Shown in pieces: positions 2,943 to 23,692 of a stretch of DNA of 24,665 bases (the first letter of the stretch is position 1; every line of letters begins with the position of its first letter). The notes beneath the pieces are model-generated. The model was not told the origin of the DNA. It worked only from the letters and a program-made list of their open reading frames with translations, and ran no database searches. The DNA is from a virus. Location of the stretch: UHGV virus genome UHGV-1848590, one strand, 5' to 3'. Made by a program: the position numbers and the translations under genes.

Positions 2943-4532
2943 TTACTTAATAAGCAGCGGTACGCCCTGGATACGACGGGCTACGCCAGTCGGGCAGCAG
3001 GCCCAGACTACTTCCCATTTATCGAATTCCGCCTGCGTAACTTTCAGCACATACGGTTCTGTACCGTCAGCATCAGGATCACGAGGAGCCACCAGAGCGC
3101 CGGAGGCGACAAAGCGATCTAAAAGTTTGGTCATCCCTTTAGTCAGGCCAGCCGCAGTAATACCGTCCGGGCTATGCTTCATCTGTCGGGCTAACTGGAC
3201 AAAGAAACGGCTGATTGCATTCATCAGGGATGGGACGTGCTGGAAGTGCAGATAGTTATCCTGCGTGCAGCAAGTTAAAGCATCGTCGATGATCATCTGG
3301 CCAGAGGTGCCAACAGATACTTTATTGAGACGGCCCTTGACCATTGCTTCTTCGTCCGGGGTATCTTCCGGATACAGCGGTTGAATTGACGCACGAGCAA
3401 TGACGGCACGTTCTTCACCAGCCGGTGAGTAATGCCAACCGCCGACATCAGAGTTTTTCTTGACGCCACGAGCTTTCGCCGCATACGCCACGCCAGACAG
3501 ACCAAAGACCACACGGGATTGGGTCCATTTGTCTTTGCAGGAGAACGGGTAGTGATAGACAGCACAGCTTACATAATCGGTACCAAGTAAACCGGTATCT
3601 TCAACAGCAGAGAGCGCTTCCGTATACGTCAATGTCGGTTTGACATCAAAGAAGCCATCAATCAGGCGATCAGAACAGATATTACCTAACGCGGTGATCG
3701 CCGCATTGTCATAGCAACCCAGGCCGAGAACAGCGGTGTACATGTACGGCGCATTGTTCAGCACCTTAACCGCACGCAGGTACGCAGCGGTTGAGATTTT
3801 CGACTGATCACCGTTGGTACCACCAGTGAACGCCAGCGATTTTTTATTTGTTACTTTCGCCGTCGAAATCAGCTCTTCATTAACAACCGCGCGCAGATAT
3901 TTAGAACGGGCTTCCAGAGCCGTAGGCAGATAACACAAGCGGCCCATGTCATCTTTCGCTTCTTCCGCCAAAGACACAGTGTGTGTCTCCAGGGTCGTTA
4001 CCACGCCGAGCGAAGTCGTCTGGGTCAGTTTTAAGAGGAAGCGTTCATTACCCGCGCTGTCCGCTGTTGCCGTTTCGATGGTTAACTCACGGGTAGGTGA
4101 AATACACGGATCACCATCATCAACGTAGATAGCAAAGGCTTCGCCACTATCAAGTTCAATTTCAGAACCGTATGGCAACGCACTGTAAGCCGGTTCGCCT
4201 GATTCATCGAACATAATAATCGGGAACTTCGCATCATCCGGAACAGCACGAACAACATAACCTGACGTTTGCTGAATAGCTTCGTATACATGGCGAATTG
4301 GTTCGAACTGTGAGCCGGAAGACGGCTTCAGCGGTTCGCCGAGAACATCTTTGTAATTGGACTCAGTAACCGCAAGAACAGTAAACGGCTTGCCACGCGC
4401 AAATACGCCAATACCAGCCCACAAGCTGCTATTTAATGCAACACCGGTAGATAACGTCGCATCGGCATTGATCGGGCTAACCGCGACGCCGGATGCATTA
4501 CCTAATGACTGTTGAATTGAATATTGAGACAT
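2943..4532 (-). CDS. putative contractile tail sheath protein (529 aa; P1 gp22-like)
   Basis: ATG with GGGAAAG RBS; N-terminal region resembles the start of myophage sheath proteins (P2 FI-like pattern); size fits my recollection of the P1 sheath protein; not verified by search. Confidence 0.45.
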   Translation of the reverse strand: MSQYSIQQSLGNASGVAVSPINADATLSTGVALNSSLWAGIGVFARGKPFTVLAVTESNYKDVLGEPLKPSSGSQFEPIRHVYEAIQQTSGYVVRAVPDDAKFPIIMFDESGEPAYSALPYGSEIELDSGEAFAIYVDDGDPCISPTRELTIETATADSAGNERFLLKLTQTTSLGVVTTLETHTVSLAEEAKDDMGRLCYLPTALEARSKYLRAVVNEELISTAKVTNKKSLAFTGGTNGDQSKISTAAYLRAVKVLNNAPYMYTAVLGLGCYDNAAITALGNICSDRLIDGFFDVKPTLTYTEALSAVEDTGLLGTDYVSCAVYHYPFSCKDKWTQSRVVFGLSGVAYAAKARGVKKNSDVGGWHYSPAGEERAVIARASIQPLYPEDTPDEEAMVKGRLNKVSVGTSGQMIIDDALTCCTQDNYLHFQHVPSLMNAISRFFVQLARQMKHSPDGITAAGLTKGMTKLLDRFVASGALVAPRDPDADGTEPYVLKVTQAEFDKWEVVWACCPTGVARRIQGVPLLIK

Positions 4533-4592
4533 AACTTTCCCTGTTATGCGCCCCGCACGGGGGCGCTATGTTAAACGGAGAACTTCCCCTGA

Positions 4593-6320
4593 TTACTCAG
4601 AGTCACCGGCATCAATCGTGTCGCCGCTTATGAAGTTAAGCCCGCCTTTTTTGGCCATTGTCAGCGTTACACGAGTGAAGTAATCAGCGCCGTTGCGTGG
4701 GTGCATATCGTTGATAGCCGAACCCCACAGTGTGGTACGGTTGACCAGCGCCGGAGTGGTCGGATGCTGGAACGGGATAGCCGGGACAGCATCACCAGTC
4801 ACGAAGCCTGCTTTACCCGGATTTTCATCACGGACGTAGCACAGCACATCCATCGAGCTGAACTGAATGTTCTCTGTCGTTAAGTTCTTACAAATACCAG
4901 CAGGTACTTCGTACACTTTCACGTTACCGAACAGGGTACCGATGTAGTGAACATACGGAGTCTGGATATAGTCTTCGGCTGGCTGGAAGAAATCCTTCGG
5001 CAACTGTTTGAAGAAAGATGCTGCATCAGCACCAGCAAACATCCCCATCGCACCAGAAGATTTAACGCGCTCAATAATGTCGCGATATACAGTCTGGAAT
5101 TTGCCACGAATGATGGTTGCCCATACATTAAAGGACTGGTTAACCGGCAGAGCGATGTCAAAGGTGTCGGTCGCAAGAGTACGCCAGATCATGATGCGAA
5201 GACGCAGCATATCCTGTTCATGAGACAGGTATTCCTTCAGGGTGCGGAACTGTAGGGAACCCAGGTCCAGACCAAATTCACGCTGTGCTTCATACGCCGC
5301 CTGTACCGTGTGCTCAGCCGCGATAACGAACTGACTTGGGAACAGGGTGTATTTCTTCATTTCGTGGTTGATCAGCGGGATCAGCTCAGGTGCGGCTTCA
5401 ATATTGATTTCCGTCTCAATTGCGATCTCAGTGCCTTTATCCGGCGCTTTGGAGAACGACAGGGCAATCTGACCAATGTTGTAGTTCAGAGAGCAGGTAA
5501 CAGTGATTTGCTCACCAGCAGCATTAGTAAACGAGTGAAGTAGGCTGCCGGAACCGTTATCAACAACAGACTTAATACGGTTAACGTAGATGTTAGTGCG
5601 ACCTTTTCGGATTGGTACATTCTGGCCTTCGAAGTCTTCCATCTTGAAGGTTGCGGTTTTGCTGGTGCCATCGGAGCTTGCCACCAGCACATAGCGGCGA
5701 CGTAACTGGCTGTACACACCAACGGATTGCATGTCCAGAACATCACCAGCAGCATAAGAACCAAAAGAGGAACCTGCCACGTTAAAGACTTCATAGATGT
5801 CGGACTGGTCACGCGTAACCGGAATGAAGGTACACGCATCAGCGGTAGCTGCCCCCAACTGAACAGGCAGGATCATCGCGAGGAATAAAGGCAGACGCAT
5901 AACACCGTCAGAAACGCTCATCATCTCTGCTGCGACGGATTCCAGCATCGCTTTATTAGTGGCATCCATGCTATTGCGGGTGGACTCAATCAGGCAGTTT
6001 TCCAGCGTCTGGTGGCAGGAGGCCAGAATTTCCGGACGCGGCATAGATTTATGTGCTGCGGCGTAGTCAGCCAGTGCACTTGCCCACGCTGTAGCGATTT
6101 GAGCGGTGGCATTATCAGAGATACCCGCAAAAACCGGGTCTTTACGTGCAGCTTCAAGGATAGATGCGGCACGCGCGGCATCATCTTTAATGAATTGGTT
6201 ATCAGTACCGAACTGCGCAGTGCTTGCCCAGCCAAGCACAGCTTTAGAGCGTTTTGCGATATCTGCAATACGATTCTGGTATTCGCGTAAGTTACTCAAT
6301 TTACTCTTCCTTAAACACAA
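4593..6320 (-). CDS. putative major head protein precursor (575 aa ORF; P1 gp23-like)
   Basis: Large ORF next to parS; helical N-terminal ~160 aa could be a cleaved delta/scaffold domain; annotated start is TTG at 6320, an alternative TTG at 6299 has an AGGAAG RBS; assignment by size and position only. Confidence 0.4.
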   Translation of the reverse strand: MCLRKSKLSNLREYQNRIADIAKRSKAVLGWASTAQFGTDNQFIKDDAARAASILEAARKDPVFAGISDNATAQIATAWASALADYAAAHKSMPRPEILASCHQTLENCLIESTRNSMDATNKAMLESVAAEMMSVSDGVMRLPLFLAMILPVQLGAATADACTFIPVTRDQSDIYEVFNVAGSSFGSYAAGDVLDMQSVGVYSQLRRRYVLVASSDGTSKTATFKMEDFEGQNVPIRKGRTNIYVNRIKSVVDNGSGSLLHSFTNAAGEQITVTCSLNYNIGQIALSFSKAPDKGTEIAIETEINIEAAPELIPLINHEMKKYTLFPSQFVIAAEHTVQAAYEAQREFGLDLGSLQFRTLKEYLSHEQDMLRLRIMIWRTLATDTFDIALPVNQSFNVWATIIRGKFQTVYRDIIERVKSSGAMGMFAGADAASFFKQLPKDFFQPAEDYIQTPYVHYIGTLFGNVKVYEVPAGICKNLTTENIQFSSMDVLCYVRDENPGKAGFVTGDAVPAIPFQHPTTPALVNRTTLWGSAINDMHPRNGADYFTRVTLTMAKKGGLNFISGDTIDAGDSE

Positions 6321-7541: not shown

Positions 7542-8738
7542 TCAGTTAGATCTGATAAATTCAATACGGTCAAAAACTGCTTTAGCAAAATCTTCCGCGG
7601 CAATTCGCGCGTTCTTCAATGCATCAGCACTACCAACATACGTTGCCGGGTTAGCTGAAATAACAGTGTCAAAAGACTCGCCGCAACGTTCAAAACCGTC
7701 AAGGCGAGGGAGGACGACATCGAGCATATCCCCACCGAACACTTCTTTAGCCAGGCTATGGCAATACTTATGATCTGCCTTGTTACTCAACTTGGACATA
7801 AAACCAATGTTAGTCGCAAGCTGGCACTCGCAGCCTTCATCCGAAATGAGTTTCACCAACTCAGGAAGGCGGGCAACGTATTTAAGCGATGAGTGGAAAT
7901 CGACAGTTGCTGGCGGCAGAGGTGTAAACAGTATATTGGCCGAGGCCAAAGCATTTTTCAGGAAGGCGTCAAGGTGAGGACCACTATCAACGAGGATAAA
8001 GTCATAATCGCTCTTCAGCTTATCAATCACATTTTCTTTCAGGACAGCATGGATGTTCTGACCCGGTAGATGCTCATTGCACAGCTCTCTCCAATCGGAT
8101 GCAATAAAGGCATCGTCAATCGACGCAGGCATAACGTCAACCCCAGGTACAACAGAAGGAACAATAAACTCCTCTAACAGCTCTTCACGGCTTACATTCT
8201 GCAACATAGCCTGTGCAGATGTTGCGTTTACGATACCAATAGAGTGTTTATGGCTTAAAAACATCGTTGCTGAAGATTGCGGATCAAGGTCAATAACCAG
8301 AATCCTTAAATCTTCCATCAGAAGATGAGGGTGAGCACGCATTGCATGCGCCAGAGAAACCGTCGATACAGTTTTTGACACACCGCCTTTAAGATTGGAG
8401 ATGAAAATCACATACGCTTCGCTGTAGCGATCCCGGTATTTTGGCACTCCGCGATGTTCATATATGTCAATGATGTTCTGAATTGACATCGCATATTTCA
8501 TTGAAGAGCCAGCAGGGCGTTTATCGAAAACATAACCCTTTTCTTCCATTTCACTTACGGCATAGTCAACGTTCGCTCGAGTCAGTAGAGGCAATTTTGC
8601 CAGTGCCGCTTTCGCATAGACCTGGTAAAACTCGTTCGCGTGTAGCTCATCCTTTTGCAACTGTACTTGTTCAGTCAGAACATTGAGCATTCTGTTTGCT
8701 CTTTGAGCAACCTTGTGAAGCTGGCTGGAATCACTCAT
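7542..8738 (-). CDS. parA: ParA partition ATPase (398 aa)
   Basis: Deviant Walker A (KGGVSKT) and N-terminal extension typical of type Ia ParA; matches P1 ParA as I recall it. Confidence 0.95.
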   Translation of the reverse strand: MSDSSQLHKVAQRANRMLNVLTEQVQLQKDELHANEFYQVYAKAALAKLPLLTRANVDYAVSEMEEKGYVFDKRPAGSSMKYAMSIQNIIDIYEHRGVPKYRDRYSEAYVIFISNLKGGVSKTVSTVSLAHAMRAHPHLLMEDLRILVIDLDPQSSATMFLSHKHSIGIVNATSAQAMLQNVSREELLEEFIVPSVVPGVDVMPASIDDAFIASDWRELCNEHLPGQNIHAVLKENVIDKLKSDYDFILVDSGPHLDAFLKNALASANILFTPLPPATVDFHSSLKYVARLPELVKLISDEGCECQLATNIGFMSKLSNKADHKYCHSLAKEVFGGDMLDVVLPRLDGFERCGESFDTVISANPATYVGSADALKNARIAAEDFAKAVFDRIEFIRSN

Positions 8739-8753
8739 CGAAAGTCATCCTTT

Positions 8754-8789
8754 ATGCTGTATTTTTGAATTTAATTAAAAATGCTGCAT
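8754..8789 (-). promoter_or_regulatory. par operon promoter/operator inverted repeat
   Basis: Imperfect inverted repeat ATGCTGTATTTTT ... AAAAATGCTGCAT immediately upstream of parA, consistent with the ParA autoregulatory operator. Confidence 0.5.
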
Positions 8790-8878
8790 AAAATAATAAT
8801 GTATGCGTAGATGCTTGTACATGGCATTCTCTGCATGTTTTGTTCATTTTGCACGATTGAGAGTTACAAGAAAGGCAC

Positions 8879-8899
8879 AAAAAAGCCCCGTTCAGGGGC
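8879..8899 (-). terminator. rho-independent terminator after the T5orf172 gene
   Basis: Hairpin gcccc-gttca-ggggc (8885-8899) followed on the minus strand by a T6 run; just downstream of the 8907 stop. Confidence 0.6.
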
Positions 8900-8906
8900 A
8901 TCAGTG

Positions 8907-9716
8907 TTATTTGCTAAGAGCAGCGAATAATCGTTCGAAATCGATAGTATCTATAGCACGCGTAAGCGCCGGAAGTTCAGCCTCAAAGTACCCGTGTCGA
9001 TCGTAAAAGAAGGGACCGAAGAGCGAGGCATGTTGGATTCTACTTCGCCCCAGCCCGGACACACAGTTAAGCCCATTACCGGCTAAAAGGCTAAAAAACT
9101 TCTCTGGATTATCGTGGTAAAGCTGAGAATCAATGGTGGCGGTTAACTCTTCCATAGGGAAGCACACCCGCCCTGTCTCCCAGGGATATTTAGTCCGAAG
9201 CATAAACATTGCTTTCAGCAATTCACATTGAGCGCGGATCGCGTCCGGTTCATAGCCAGATATGGAGACATAAGCCACGTCCCTCATTCCTGCGTCATCT
9301 TTGAAAGTCACGATAGAAGTAACATCCAGTTCTTTTTCGAAAGAGCGAGCAGCATCTACTGGACGCTGAAGTAAATCATTCGACTTAATGCGCTCGAGAA
9401 TCCCTCCCCACATATCATTTAGATATTCGATATGAGCCAAAACCTTATCAAGACACTCTCGTGTAAACCATTCAGTATGCCCGCCACCGGCGCTTTTCTC
9501 CCACGGCGCATTCCAGGGGAAAAAGGTTGCGTGTAAAGCCCGCTCAAGATTAACCATTGCCAAACGCGTACCACGATAGACCCGTGAAAGCGCAAAATCG
9601 GGACTCACTTGTAGCCCTTTAAACCGTGCCAATGGACCACATGAAATGCCGATTTTAAAAGTATCTCCGTTCTCCGGCACCAGAACGTAGAGGTAGTGTT
9701 GTTTCTCTTCTTGCAT
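8907..9716 (-). CDS. T5orf172 (GIY-YIG-like) domain protein with unknown C-terminal domain (269 aa)
   Basis: N-terminal HYLYVLVPENGDTFKIGIS...LARFKGLQ...LERALHATF...GGHTEWFTRECLDKV follows the T5orf172/GIY-YIG pattern; own terminator; no strong SD at the ATG. Confidence 0.55.
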   Translation of the reverse strand: MQEEKQHYLYVLVPENGDTFKIGISCGPLARFKGLQVSPDFALSRVYRGTRLAMVNLERALHATFFPWNAPWEKSAGGGHTEWFTRECLDKVLAHIEYLNDMWGGILERIKSNDLLQRPVDAARSFEKELDVTSIVTFKDDAGMRDVAYVSISGYEPDAIRAQCELLKAMFMLRTKYPWETGRVCFPMEELTATIDSQLYHDNPEKFFSLLAGNGLNCVSGLGRSRIQHASLFGPFFYDRHGYFEAELPALTRAIDTIDFERLFAALSK

Positions 9717-9739
9717 ATCAATACCACTGCTTGATGAGA

Positions 9740-10010
9740 ACCGCGCAAATGTTGACTATGCGCGAAAGTTAATGTGAATAGTTGACTATGCGCGATGTGA
9801 CTACAGTCAAAAGTTGACTGTAGTCGATTTAACTCCACCAAAGATCGACTATGTAAGATATTGTCGGGAGAAACGTTGACTATACGCGATGAAATGACCC
9901 TAAAAGCCATCTCAATAGCGACTTGCAGAATATTGACGCCAGCAAAAATCCACCAGCGTCAACGAATGTCGCCTATAGTCAACTTCTCGCTATCGCATAT
10001 AGTCAATATT
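9740..10010. repeat. incA-like iteron array (copy-number control locus)
   Basis: About 7-8 copies of the ~14-19 bp iteron (core TTGACTATGCGCGA / TCGCATATAGTCAA) in both orientations downstream of repA. Confidence 0.8.
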
Positions 10011-10893
10011 ATGGATTGCGCTTATGGATCTGAAAGCCGATTTTCCTGCCGTTTTTTATCTCTGAAAATTTAAGATATTCAATAGCTTCCAAATCTTTCA
10101 TGGCTTTTCTGATAACGCTATTTTGCACGCTAACGGATGATTTGAGATTAAGCCTTGCTCTAAGGCGCTCAATGCTGACAGGTGCCGGGTTGGCGGGTAG
10201 AGCCTCAAAGAATGTATACAGTACCTTGGCCGTCTCTTTGCGCCCGAGCTTATCCAGCATCTTCAGCTTCAGGATTCGCTTATAGTCAACATAGTAAAGT
10301 TCAGATAGCTGTTTCTGCGGCTGGATCTCGATAACATCAAGCTCGGTATTCAGGCTGCTATATGCCAACAAGTTGACGTTAATGTTATTGAGATGACCTT
10401 TTGCCGCCGGGAAGCGGAATTTGACAACTGTCTGCTGAATGCGTGTCAGAGAGTCATCAATACTTTTACGGAACGCCTTTGAAAGGCGCTTACGTGGATA
10501 GCCGCATCGATCGGCAAACTCGGAGAATGGCAGGGTGATTATGCCGTCATCATCAGGTGCGTAGTCAAACAACGCGGAGGTTATGCCCACCCACACCTTA
10601 AAATCAGTATCCATATCCAGGCGTGGACCATGAATTTCAATTCCCTCATAGCCTTCCTGCTCAACAATTTTGAGGCTTGATAGTTCTTCGGTTGCGTTCG
10701 TTGTGTTTGTAGTAACTGACGATCCGCGACGTAGTGCCACATTGGTAGATTTTAAGGTTGGCACAAACACACCTAAGCGCAACAAAGCAATGGGTTGTAT
10801 AGTGCTATTGTTATTGGGTTTCAGGCTGTGGATTTCTCCTGTATTTCCTGCAACTTCTTCAACGCTAAGGAAGCCTTTATTTTCTTCCAGCAT
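10009..10893 (-). CDS. repA: RepA iteron-binding replication initiator (294 aa from ATG 10893; ORF extends to TTG 10950)
   Basis: Conserved NNSTIQPIALLRLGVFVPTLKS, GPRLDMDTDFKVW and ERLRARLNLKS blocks shared with P1/RepFIB RepA; flanked by iterons on both sides; ATG 10893 has a GGAGA RBS. Confidence 0.9.
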   Translation of the reverse strand: MLEENKGFLSVEEVAGNTGEIHSLKPNNNSTIQPIALLRLGVFVPTLKSTNVALRRGSSVTTNTTNATEELSSLKIVEQEGYEGIEIHGPRLDMDTDFKVWVGITSALFDYAPDDDGIITLPFSEFADRCGYPRKRLSKAFRKSIDDSLTRIQQTVVKFRFPAAKGHLNNINVNLLAYSSLNTELDVIEIQPQKQLSELYYVDYKRILKLKMLDKLGRKETAKVLYTFFEALPANPAPVSIERLRARLNLKSSVSVQNSVIRKAMKDLEAIEYLKFSEIKNGRKIGFQIHKRNP

Positions 10894-10973
10894 CGTGGTT
10901 TCTCCATATGTGGCGCGGCCTGGCGTCATCTGGATTGCAGTTATCAACAACTGTGAATAGTCAGGCTCTAAAA

Positions 10974-11074
10974 TCGCGTACAGTCAATGTTTCTGTCGCA
11001 TATAGTCAACAATAAATCGCGTGCAGTCAACAATAAATCGTGCACAGTCAACATAAAATCGCGTATAGTCAATG
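10974..11074. repeat. incC-like origin iterons (five direct repeats, ~21 bp spacing)
   Basis: AAATCGCGTRYAGTCAAY repeated five times (10974, 10997, 11018, 11038, 11060), same family as the downstream array. Confidence 0.85.
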
Positions 11075-11113
11075 TTGATCCCATTTCAGGCCAGAAATGG
11101 CGCGGCTTACAGC

Positions 11114-11184
11114 GATCCGGGATCTTCTTTGGATCTTCCTGGGTTCTCTTTAGGATCTGTTTATTGGATCTATGCTGTGGATAA
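11114..11184. promoter_or_regulatory. origin accessory region: five GATC sites plus a DnaA box
   Basis: GATC at 11114, 11121, 11132, 11154, 11167 within 57 bp; exact DnaA box TGTGGATAA (complement TTATCCACA) at 11176-11184; same architecture as P1 oriR. Confidence 0.7.
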
Positions 11185-11226
11185 GTTGAATAAACCGGCC
11201 AACATAGCCGGTTGGAAGGAAGGGTA

Positions 11227-11619
11227 TTATTCTACGCTTTCGATAAGAAGACCATGTTCATAACATTTAAGCTCATCGCCTTCGTACAGGAATTGGTATC
11301 CAATACCACCATTTTCATGGACATTAGGGAATAACTCATAACTCACTGAAGAGCAAATCACACCAATGCAGCGATCAACGCCTTCTCGTTCTTCAGTGCT
11401 GAAAAAATCCTCTTCGGTAAGAACATGAGTACATTGCTCATCAGCATAGGTCGGAAATACATGCTCGATGCAATCCGGGTGTTTTAAACCAAGCTGATCG
11501 GCAAGCACGAAAGCATGACGGTATTGTTCAGATCCTGGCTTGCCAACAGTGATGTGCTCAATTTTGTAGATTGAAGTCGCTTTGTTGATAGTTTGCTTTA
11601 CTGTTACTTTATCAGACAT
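11227..11619 (-). CDS. hypothetical protein (130 aa; P1 upfA position)
   Basis: ORF with ATG start just right of the origin; no recognisable motif. Confidence 0.5.
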   Translation of the reverse strand: MSDKVTVKQTINKATSIYKIEHITVGKPGSEQYRHAFVLADQLGLKHPDCIEHVFPTYADEQCTHVLTEEDFFSTEEREGVDRCIGVICSSVSYELFPNVHENGGIGYQFLYEGDELKCYEHGLLIESVE

Positions 11620-13421: not shown

Positions 13422-13438
13422 ATTGCTCTAATAAATAT
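13422..13438 (+). promoter_or_regulatory. C1 repressor operator-like site upstream of uhr-hrdC-dmt
   Basis: ATTGCTCTAATAAATAT, 16/17 match to the P1 C1 operator consensus ATTGCTCTAATAAATTT as I recall it. Confidence 0.55.
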
Positions 13439-17600: not shown

Positions 17601-17730
17601 CGCGCCAAACATCAGAGAGCTTTATCATGACAGTGGCTTCAGAGTGGAACCTCTTTTTGCCAGACGTTCTGTGTCTTGTAAGGGGGACACTCGAGGTGTA
17701 GCTCATGACGTTTTGGGTATATTGCTCTAA
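14689..17730 (+). CDS. dmt: bifunctional DNA methyltransferase Dmt (N-terminal C5-cytosine MTase, C-terminal Dam-like N6-adenine MTase) interrupted by an intein; 1013 aa precursor
   Basis: C5-MTase motifs I (CSGIEAAS), IV ([12 protein letters not shown], split), VI (VWENVPG), VIII (QRRRRVFVV), X (GNSMAIPV); Dam domain from ~residue 745 (FKWAGGKF...FCDPPYEP); GTG start overlaps the rdgC stop. Confidence 0.9.
14920..15942 (+). mobile_element. intein with LAGLIDADG homing endonuclease (341 aa, residues 78-418 of Dmt)
   Basis: Block [21 protein letters not shown], block [17 protein letters not shown] motifs [11 protein letters not shown] and [11 protein letters not shown], blocks [23 protein letters not shown] followed by +1 Cys; flanks rejoin as [12 protein letters not shown]. 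Confidence 0.85.
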
Positions 17731-17737
17731 TAAATTT
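17721..17737 (+). promoter_or_regulatory. C1 operator-like site overlapping a promoter
   Basis: Exact ATTGCTCTAATAAATTT overlapping the dmt stop; -35-like TTGCTC (17722-17727), 17 bp spacer, -10-like TAATAT (17745-17750). Confidence 0.6.
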
Positions 17738-17749
17738 ATTAGTGTAATA

Positions 17750-23359: not shown

Positions 23360-23391
23360 ATTGCTCTAATAAATTTGATTTATTAGAGCAA
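23360..23391. promoter_or_regulatory. paired inverted C1 operator-like sites
   Basis: ATTGCTCTAATAAATTT (23360-23376) and, 3 bp away, an inverted copy of the TTGCTCTAATAAAT core (23378-23391). Confidence 0.55.
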
Positions 23392-23692
23392 ATAAACTAC
23401 CATCGAACGCCAGACTATTGATCTTCCTGTTGTTCAGGCTTATAGTTCCTACGTCGTAGTAAATTCTGCGACCGGGTTTGACAGCCTGAATGTACATGCG
23501 GACAACCGCAGATATCCGATATTGCGGTATTTTTGTGTCCGTAAACCACGTTACGCCCGAATTATGGTGGGGCGTGATGGGGAGGCTTCGGCCTGCTGGT
23601 TTCATGTACGCCAGTCTGCTAACCCCGTCACGTCCTGCCACCTGTTTGACAGCGGGTAGCAGGTTGTTAAACCTGTACATGAGGCCGTAACT

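Follow-up and report, generated by a model that had tools for sequence, protein, structure and literature searches.

The 24,665-nucleotide virus genome UHGV-1848590, the whole of which is called the window here, carries the replication and partition region of a P1-like phage-plasmid. Between its par operon and a field of incA-like iterons lies an unusually placed gene of the T5orf172 homing-endonuclease-like kind: it occupies the replicon specificity cassette of a phage-plasmid, and its second domain is an orphan. Read along the minus strand, the order is origin iterons, repA′, iteron field, nuclease gene, terminator, the par promoter Ppar, parA and parB (Table 1). A gene of 269 codons with its own terminator had been predicted at 8879–9740, and this interval does resolve into an open reading frame (ORF; ATG start, 269-residue product), a terminator and a 5′ leader. 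The terminator reads GCCCC-TGAAC-GGGGC at 8899–8885, followed by TTTTTTG (minus strand), and its hairpin folds at −11.9 kcal/mol (z = −2.7 relative to shuffled sequences); at the equivalent place, the diverged P1-like contig L003 has another hairpin. Upstream, the final incA-like iteron copy stops 31 bp ahead of the ATG.

The gene is no chance ORF: it gives a full-length match to phrog_2876 (643 bits), has a syntenic diverged homologue and is present in 401 PLSDB plasmids. Within PHROGs, phrog_2876 is a family of unknown function, and a weak match to an “endonuclease” family was also obtained. Base composition does not set the gene apart from its flanks. Two stretches of reading frame were discarded as translated iterons: a 101-residue ORF at 9605–9910 (minus strand), whose peptide repeats ...AHSQ... 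and which is not coding, and a 41-residue N-terminal extension of the L003 homologue (P0004), a gene-caller artefact. Neither a C1 operator nor a P1 late-promoter-like motif was found near the nuclease gene, and an Rfam scan returned sub-threshold noise only. Elsewhere in the window, the P1 C1 operator consensus is matched five times (twice exactly), at 13422–13438, 17721–17748 and 23360–23392, away from the gene.

Table 1. Features of the cassette and its flanks in the window.
Feature	Position	Strand	Basis or remark
parB	7525–6524	−	
parA	8738–7542	−	
par operon promoter Ppar, common to P1, outside the cassette	8793–8821	−	Promoter scan and P1 annotation
par-proximal breakpoint	8838–8843		P1 match (99.3%) ends at 8840/8841, with none beyond; 19 bp upstream of the Ppar −35 box
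Intrinsic terminator of the T5orf172 gene	8876–8899	−	5-bp G+C stem, 5-nt loop, T-run
T5orf172-family gene, 269 codons plus stop	8907–9716	−	ORF list; full-length phrog_2876 match; RefSeq name in RCS47 and plasmids
C-terminal orphan domain, residues 106–269, fast-evolving	8910–9401	−	
N-terminal T5orf172/GIY-YIG-type nuclease domain, residues 1–105	9402–9716	−	Pfam PF10544 and invariant residues
incA-like iteron field, 2 direct + 4 inverted copies, TTGACTAT(A/G)CGCGA type	9747–10010		
repA′, p0111-type Rep_3/RepFIB-family initiator, 294 residues	10009–10893	−	
Five origin iterons, incC equivalent, four at 21 bp spacing	10969–11076		
Origin-side breakpoint	11087–11092		P1 similarity back at 11090, inside oriR

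The original prediction assigned the N-terminal part of the protein to T5orf172, and a profile search bears this out: Pfam T5orf172 (PF10544) matches residues 8–85 with 27.5 bits (E = 4.6e-6), above the curated gathering cut-off of 20. The L003 homologue, which is 44% identical, scores 28 bits against the same model and 23 bits against MUG113 (cut-off 22.3). When aligned with this homologue and with the T5orf172 “endonucleases” of Vibrio phage eugene, Salmonella phage Se-J and Klebsiella phage FZ14, the protein retains L9, Y10, K21, G23, R31, E58, H62, G79 and E82 as invariant residues. These nine core positions show no variation among 44 natural alleles either, and the catalytic core therefore looks intact. 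It comprises the tyrosine of strand 1, the K-I/V-G of strand 2, the arginine of helix 1, the Glu..His pair of helix 2 and the glutamate in (T/S)EW. Judging from its position in the motif and from the work on Odn, E82 is presumably the equivalent of the Odn catalytic glutamate E180 (PMC8263062). Its nearest relatives in sequence, at 31–38% identity, come from lytic phages (Vibrio and Klebsiella phages and Kuttervirus), in which the genes are called T5orf172 “endonuclease”. In Klebsiella phage FZ14 (L116, 472–1173), the T5orf172 gene sits between two fragments of a DNA-polymerase coding sequence, a textbook position for a homing endonuclease. Neither the PDB sequences, solved GIY-YIG structures included, nor the NCBIfam models gave a match to the protein. 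An AlphaFold 2 (AF2) model of the full protein, built from an alignment in which just two distinct sequences exist, reached a mean predicted local distance difference test score (pLDDT) of 52, and a Foldseek search of the PDB with this low-confidence model returned nothing at E < 0.1.

The C-terminal part had been described as matching nothing recognisable, and so it proved. A profile search of 1.84 billion representative proteins with these ~165 residues retrieved only fragments of the protein's own family, and the domain has no match in Pfam or, by phmmer and hmmsearch, in the PDB. Compared with L003, it is 31% identical and aligns with one gap. Modelled alone in AF2, it reached a mean pLDDT of 45; a helix-helix-helix-strand-strand pattern at residues 188–231 hints at a winged helix, a hint made untrustworthy by the low confidence of the models. 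We presume that the domain is a target-recognition module. Mimicry of a replication initiator in the style of Odn was considered and rejected: hhalign gave the C-terminal domain a probability of 0.2% against the p0111 RepA and likewise 0.2% against the IncY RepA of P1. A comparison with ParB by the same method found no similarity.

The genomic setting differs from what was first supposed. P1 was said to have only regulatory DNA here, and its reference record indeed lists no coding sequence between parA/Ppar (61296) and incA iteron 1 (61487), ~190 bp of non-coding DNA. The surroundings are not P1's own incA and RepA context, however. The iterons (TTGACTATGCGCGA type) and the RepA, 41% identical to that of P1, belong to a p0111-type replicon, and the nuclease gene, rather than cargo inserted into the parA–incA interval of P1, is the terminal gene of an alternative replicon cassette that replaces the IncY cassette of P1 as a block. 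Identity to P1 is 99.3% up to 8840 and 95.3% from 11090 onward. The 2249 bp between these points (8841–11089) have essentially no P1 counterpart except a 59-bp stretch of 76% identity inside repA, and they hold the origin iterons, repA′, the incA-like iterons and, at the par-proximal edge, the nuclease gene. The latter lies 45–65 bp from a sharp recombination breakpoint between genomes that are otherwise 99.3% identical. The other breakpoint falls inside oriR, 14–16 bp past the last origin iteron, so that the half of oriR with the Dam sites and the DnaA box is common to both types. Among the matches listed, those to IncY-type plasmids all end at this point or within 3 bp of it (query positions 538–541, window 8837–8840 on the par side). 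The window at 8300–11250 is 100% identical to E. coli plasmid NZ_AP018798.1, and its replicon is the p0111 type of P1-like phage-plasmids, as in RCS47, SJ46, JL22 and Ro157c2YLVW.

Set beside the IncY region of P1 (incC-repA-incA-parAB in the annotation of Lobocka et al. 2004, NC_005856), the window shows the same succession of origin iterons, repA, control iterons, parA and parB, an identical par operon and an identical host-factor part of oriR. It differs in its RepA, in iterons unrelated in sequence and in the gene between incA and Ppar. The window thus has a P1-type par operon and outer oriR and lacks the core features of P1-type IncY, the P1-type RepA and the 19-bp incA/incC iterons. The comparison of the window at 8841–11089 with P1 (L001) at 4317–5807 also shows, as an observation in its own right, that IncY and p0111 differ by a precisely bounded specificity cassette made up of iterons, initiator and iterons. 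A second variable spot lies immediately beside the cassette: at its origin-side flank, upfA is replaced by a Gp49-family (HigB-like) gene in some IncY-type elements, namely L015 and L017 (6184–7015) and L117 (2668–3030), joined in L015 and L017 by a 402-nt ORF. We also note a misleading label in PLSDB, where MOB-suite assigns the p0111 replicon to IncHI1B.

A second clade carries the same pair of alternatives. The L003 homologue occupies the equivalent place, flanked by a p0111-like repA and parA; the P1-like contig that carries it has a backbone ~71% identical to that of the window at the DNA level. At the amino acid level, the two are 89% identical in ParA, 84% in RepA, 80% in gp23 and 67% in ParB; the nuclease domain is 64% identical and the C-terminal domain 31%. 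Because synonymous sites are saturated in this comparison, non-synonymous divergence (dN) alone is usable and dN/dS is not: dN is 0.74 for the C-terminal domain, 0.28 for the N-terminal domain, 0.13 for repA and 0.07 for parA. The nearest PLSDB relative of the L003 backbone, the Salmonella plasmid p21-SA00706-0 (L117; ParA 96.7% and ParB 91.9% identical to L003), has an IncY-like RepA (84% identical to that of P1), P1-type iterons and no nuclease gene. Similarity between L117 and L003 breaks inside oriR and restarts ~110 bp upstream of parA, at breakpoints equivalent to those of the window. These identical breakpoints indicate that the two alternative cassettes are old, and the nuclease gene has stayed with the p0111-like cassette throughout.

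In a neighbour-joining tree of the 2.3 kb par region beside the breakpoint, seven IncY-type and twelve p0111-type elements are intermixed. ParA has the same RefSeq accession in both types at every PLSDB locus examined, and so has ParB except in L009. The cassettes have thus been exchanged repeatedly. A third p0111-like lineage (L105, 3700–5150, and L106; NZ_CP085065.1 and CP042620.1) has a RepA 85% identical to that of the window and a like iteron layout. Its host is a non-P1 family of Escherichia phage-plasmids of ~92 kb, without the nuclease gene and without adjacent parAB; relatives within this family have another RepB-family replicon (rep_cluster_1704) at that site. Since the third-lineage replicon lacks the nuclease gene, the latter stands outside the replication machinery. 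The control iterons are arranged as 2 direct and 4 inverted copies in L105, as in the window, and as 1 and 4 in L003. In all three lineages, a TTGACGCTGG(T/C)GGATTT motif lies between the direct and the inverted control iterons (window 9945–9962, minus strand; L003 9914–9931; L105 4931–4948). Together with GCGTCAA, the TTGACGCTGG motif forms a 7-bp inverted repeat in the window; a role as weak DnaA box or promoter element is conceivable.

Alleles of the nuclease gene were compared at 45 IMG/VR loci that were not picked for divergence. An earlier polymorphism count, biased because its loci had been picked for low protein identity, was replaced by this sample. The gene is intact at 36 loci, has a premature stop at 7, is interrupted by an insertion sequence (IS) at 1 and is cut by a contig end at 1, which amounts to ~18% disrupted alleles. 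The stops are S112* in five contigs, W68* in one and Q228* in one, phage SJ46; because of the last of these and the shared S112*, not all reference genomes of the group encode a full-length protein. For the record, the S112* contigs are L025, L026, L029, L031 and L032, and the allele of SJ46, the type phage, is L053/L076. PLSDB supplies further examples, among them stops at codon 189 and at codon 224, a truncated allele and one interrupted by IS1. Four 98-residue “homologues” (P0012–P0015) that might be taken for a short family are frameshifted alleles of the nuclease gene; at least 24 contigs have P0012 and 19 have P0013, and several of the frameshifts are independent. Segregating changes number 31 synonymous and 38 non-synonymous in the nuclease gene, compared with 48 and 4 in repA′, 50 and 1 in parA, 82 and 21 in parB, and 54 and 35 in upfA. 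On the assumption of ~2.8 non-synonymous sites per synonymous site, we estimate the ratio of non-synonymous to synonymous polymorphism (pN/pS) of the nuclease gene at ~0.4. The gene is dispensable, and constraint on it is weak but not absent.

Such figures raise the question of whether the gene is a relic, a formerly active nuclease that is now functionless and is kept by linkage to repA′. The frequency of disrupted alleles and a non-synonymous to synonymous ratio far above that of the flanking genes are what one would expect of a relic. However, pN/pS is ~0.4 and not 1, the catalytic residues never vary, the ORF is unbroken and aligns with a single gap even in a lineage with saturated synonymous sites, and the allele in the window is itself intact. 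We regard this explanation as very unlikely.

The position of the gene, directly between the incA-like iterons and Ppar, suggests a further alternative, namely that a domesticated endonuclease acts as a DNA-binding regulator of RepA–iteron handcuffing, of copy number or of Ppar. Co-transcription with repA′, which is probable since no promoter of the gene's own was found, would suit such a role. There is also a precedent, as domesticated relatives of the T5orf172 homing-endonuclease family, e.g., CapR in the satellite PLE, act as repressors according to PMC8096241 in the form in which it is cited in PMC10448857. Yet the catalytic residues are preserved without variation across the alleles examined, disrupted copies are frequent in plasmids that are otherwise normal, another element family uses the p0111-like replicon in the gene's absence, and the IncY cassette has no counterpart of it. 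Of the readings considered here, regulation is the least probable.

The gene is not peculiar to the window; it accompanies nearly every p0111-type repA. Its protein is encoded in the 401 PLSDB plasmids at no less than 90% identity, in 12 phage records and in 412 of 5426 complete E. coli genomes (7.6%). A close repA′ is present in ~396 PLSDB plasmids, 388 of which have the entire block. Searching IMG/VR through RepA′ gave 46 loci, and all 44 close ones carry the gene, including the IS-interrupted copy and the one cut by a contig end. Among the 185,579 species representatives of GTDB, only one (Escherichia sp.) has it. Outside the lineage, a search of 5.8 billion clusters and an exhaustive profile search of the 1.84 billion proteins found a single diverged relative, P0004. 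The family is therefore known from P1-like elements of four genera (Escherichia, Salmonella, Shigella and Klebsiella) and from a single diverged contig. As for universality in P1-like elements with a housekeeping role, the condition that the original prediction had named as telling against it, the gene is universal in the p0111 subgroup only and has no known housekeeping role.

RefSeq already labels the product “GIY-YIG nuclease family protein”, and the gene was noted as an unknown ORF in earlier papers (PMC9603915, PMC9037040, PMC6906374), one of which mentions “2 orfs inserted between repA and parA” (PMC6906374) and another of which lists “RepFIB, GIY-YIG nuclease, parA, parB” (PMC9037040). 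No paper that we found assigns it a function. The record of phage phi456 (OR339795.1; hits H3 and H78) labels it “terminase small subunit”, almost certainly a misannotation. Given that the gene is common and already annotated, this is no discovery of a new element.

The original prediction also proposed a role in defence or anti-defence. On this reading, a single cargo gene would encode a nuclease activated by, or aimed at, an infecting phage. Phage-plasmids often carry defence genes, and sporadic inactivation is typical of such genes too. However, defence genes usually move widely, and this family is limited to one replicon type of P1-like elements and one diverged contig. GIY-YIG and T5orf172 domains do occur in conflict systems (PMC8263062). 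Against this, the protein matches no PADLOC-DB v2 family at E ≤ 1 and no NCBIfam model, has no partner gene and is encoded in the replicon cassette, outside the variable regions reported for P1-like elements (PMC9603915). The very narrow taxonomic range, the strict linkage to one replicon type and the missing PADLOC match leave the proposal unsupported, and we find it quite unlikely.

We favour, with a probability of about 40%, the reading that the p0111 cassette has a selfish, homing-endonuclease-like nuclease gene linked to it, and we do so because its features coincide with the signatures of T5orf172 homing genes in ICP1 and other Vibrio phages, Kuttervirus and Klebsiella Jedunavirus (Barth, Dunham & Seed 2023, PMC10448857). 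Those signatures are variable presence, frameshifts and stops, a position beside essential genes and a nuclease domain at one terminus; such genes are also located at boundaries of genetic exchange (Barth et al., PMC10448857). The gene described here has the same Pfam domain and core residues, is free-standing and has its second module at the other terminus. It lies beside essential genes and at a recombination boundary, with repA′ and the iterons on one side and parA on the other, and likewise in the second clade. Its degenerate alleles arose by frameshift, stop and IS insertion, and its constraint is relaxed. Variable presence is less clear-cut: p0111 elements have the gene and IncY elements, 99.3% identical up to 8840, are without it, but this polymorphism always spans the whole replicon cassette. 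Homing is putative both for this gene and for most phage T5orf172 genes.

If this reading is correct, the protein would be an endonuclease from the T5orf172 branch of the GIY-YIG superfamily, free-standing and built of two modules, with an N-terminal catalytic domain and a C-terminal domain for target recognition. We infer the steps of expression, cleavage, target and conversion as follows. The gene would be weakly expressed, probably through transcripts that start at the repA′ promoter and read through the iterons. Where p0111-type and IncY-type P1-like elements meet in one cell, the nuclease would cut DNA that is exclusive to the IncY allele or rival, and the break would be repaired from the p0111-type copy through the near-identical par and oriR flanks. 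Repair would copy the entire cassette, nuclease gene included, into the rival, or would exclude the rival's markers. The nuclease gene, unneeded for replication or partition, would decay when targets are lacking. A stronger form of the idea, a replicon drive in which the nuclease cuts the iterons, incA or oriR of the IncY cassette in rivals that share its partition system and so destroys them, or converts them to the p0111 cassette through repair that uses the par and oriR flanks, seems unlikely to us.

Comparable behaviour is known from I-TevI and the Seg proteins of T4. Whether free-standing or intergenic, these bring about co-conversion or exclusion of the markers that flank them. Like them, the protein has a catalytic N-terminal domain of ~100 residues followed by a C-terminal region, whose recognition role is presumed here; unlike them, it belongs to the T5orf172 subfamily and not to the GIY-YIG Pfam family proper, and it has no zinc-finger or helix-turn-helix recognition region.

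Several observations weigh against homing. The C-terminal domain shows no recognisable DNA-binding motif and no conserved cysteine pairs, and it lacks the CxxC zinc finger of most T5orf172 homing endonucleases (PMC10448857); nor is there a zinc finger of the CapR/DUF723 type. The domain order is reversed relative to the nearest phage relatives, since the nuclease domain is N-terminal here and, in the three phage proteins examined, lies C-terminal after a CxxC motif. A promoter scan found no sigma-70-like promoter on the gene strand between repA′ and the nuclease ATG. No clean empty site was found among the 44 close repA′ loci with P1 backbones in IMG/VR. Unlike the homing genes of lytic phages, this one is single-copy and resides in the plasmid-replicon cassette of a temperate phage-plasmid; it was never found away from a p0111-like repA, at another site or as a paralogue, and independent mobility is thus unsupported. 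Replicon cassettes are swapped without the nuclease in the L105 family, and the nuclease is therefore not needed to explain exchange. Lastly, the gene is intact across a divergence at which RepA is 84% identical, which points to long-term selection beyond that expected for a purely decaying selfish gene.

Retention in two clades over such a divergence would suggest a benefit to the carrier, and it brings in the closest rival, whose core step, as with homing, is the cutting of DNA devoid of the cassette. According to it, the nuclease serves competition between elements without homing and cuts the replicon or genome of a rival, e.g., an IncY-type P1 element, as Odn of ICP1 does with its own rival. 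IncY rivals share ParAB/parS with the carrier and could not stably coexist with it, so that their removal would benefit the carrier. The precedent is Odn (ICP1 gp88; Barth et al. 2021, PMC8263062), a T5orf172 nuclease whose catalytic domain is joined to a specificity module. Odn takes part in a conflict between replicons, in which it cuts origin iterons of the satellite PLE; its catalytic glutamate is essential, and the presumed counterpart E82 is conserved here. Strict linkage to one of the two cassettes in P1-like backbones, where the IncY rival has an identical par system, fits competition, as does the absence of the gene where a p0111-like replicon occupies a non-P1 backbone. The fast evolution of the C-terminal domain is compatible with an arms race. 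In Odn, however, the DNA-binding domain is homologous to the N-terminal domain of the target's RepA, whereas the C-terminal domain here resembles neither RepA type, nor ParB, and so offers no mimicry of that style. About one in five or six IMG/VR alleles is disrupted, and a pN/pS of ~0.4 implies less constraint than one would expect of a profitable function; nor does the nuclease have a known target. A plasmid-competition role, which the original prediction had also suggested, is possible, and we hold it as doubtful.

P1-like phage-plasmids are common carriers of resistance genes and come in two replicon types, for which no account of origin or maintenance exists. With a nuclease settled at the border of one of them, there is a testable hypothesis for how near-identical elements exchange their cassettes or compete. 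Should the gene prove inert, it would be a well-conserved hitch-hiker, and the RefSeq label would stay adequate. The hypothesis would extend T5orf172 homing-type nucleases from lytic phages to plasmid replicons. If replicon drive in the stronger form is true, the old split between IncY and p0111, with its identical breakpoints in two clades, would be a polymorphism of a replication-specificity module maintained by a homing endonuclease.

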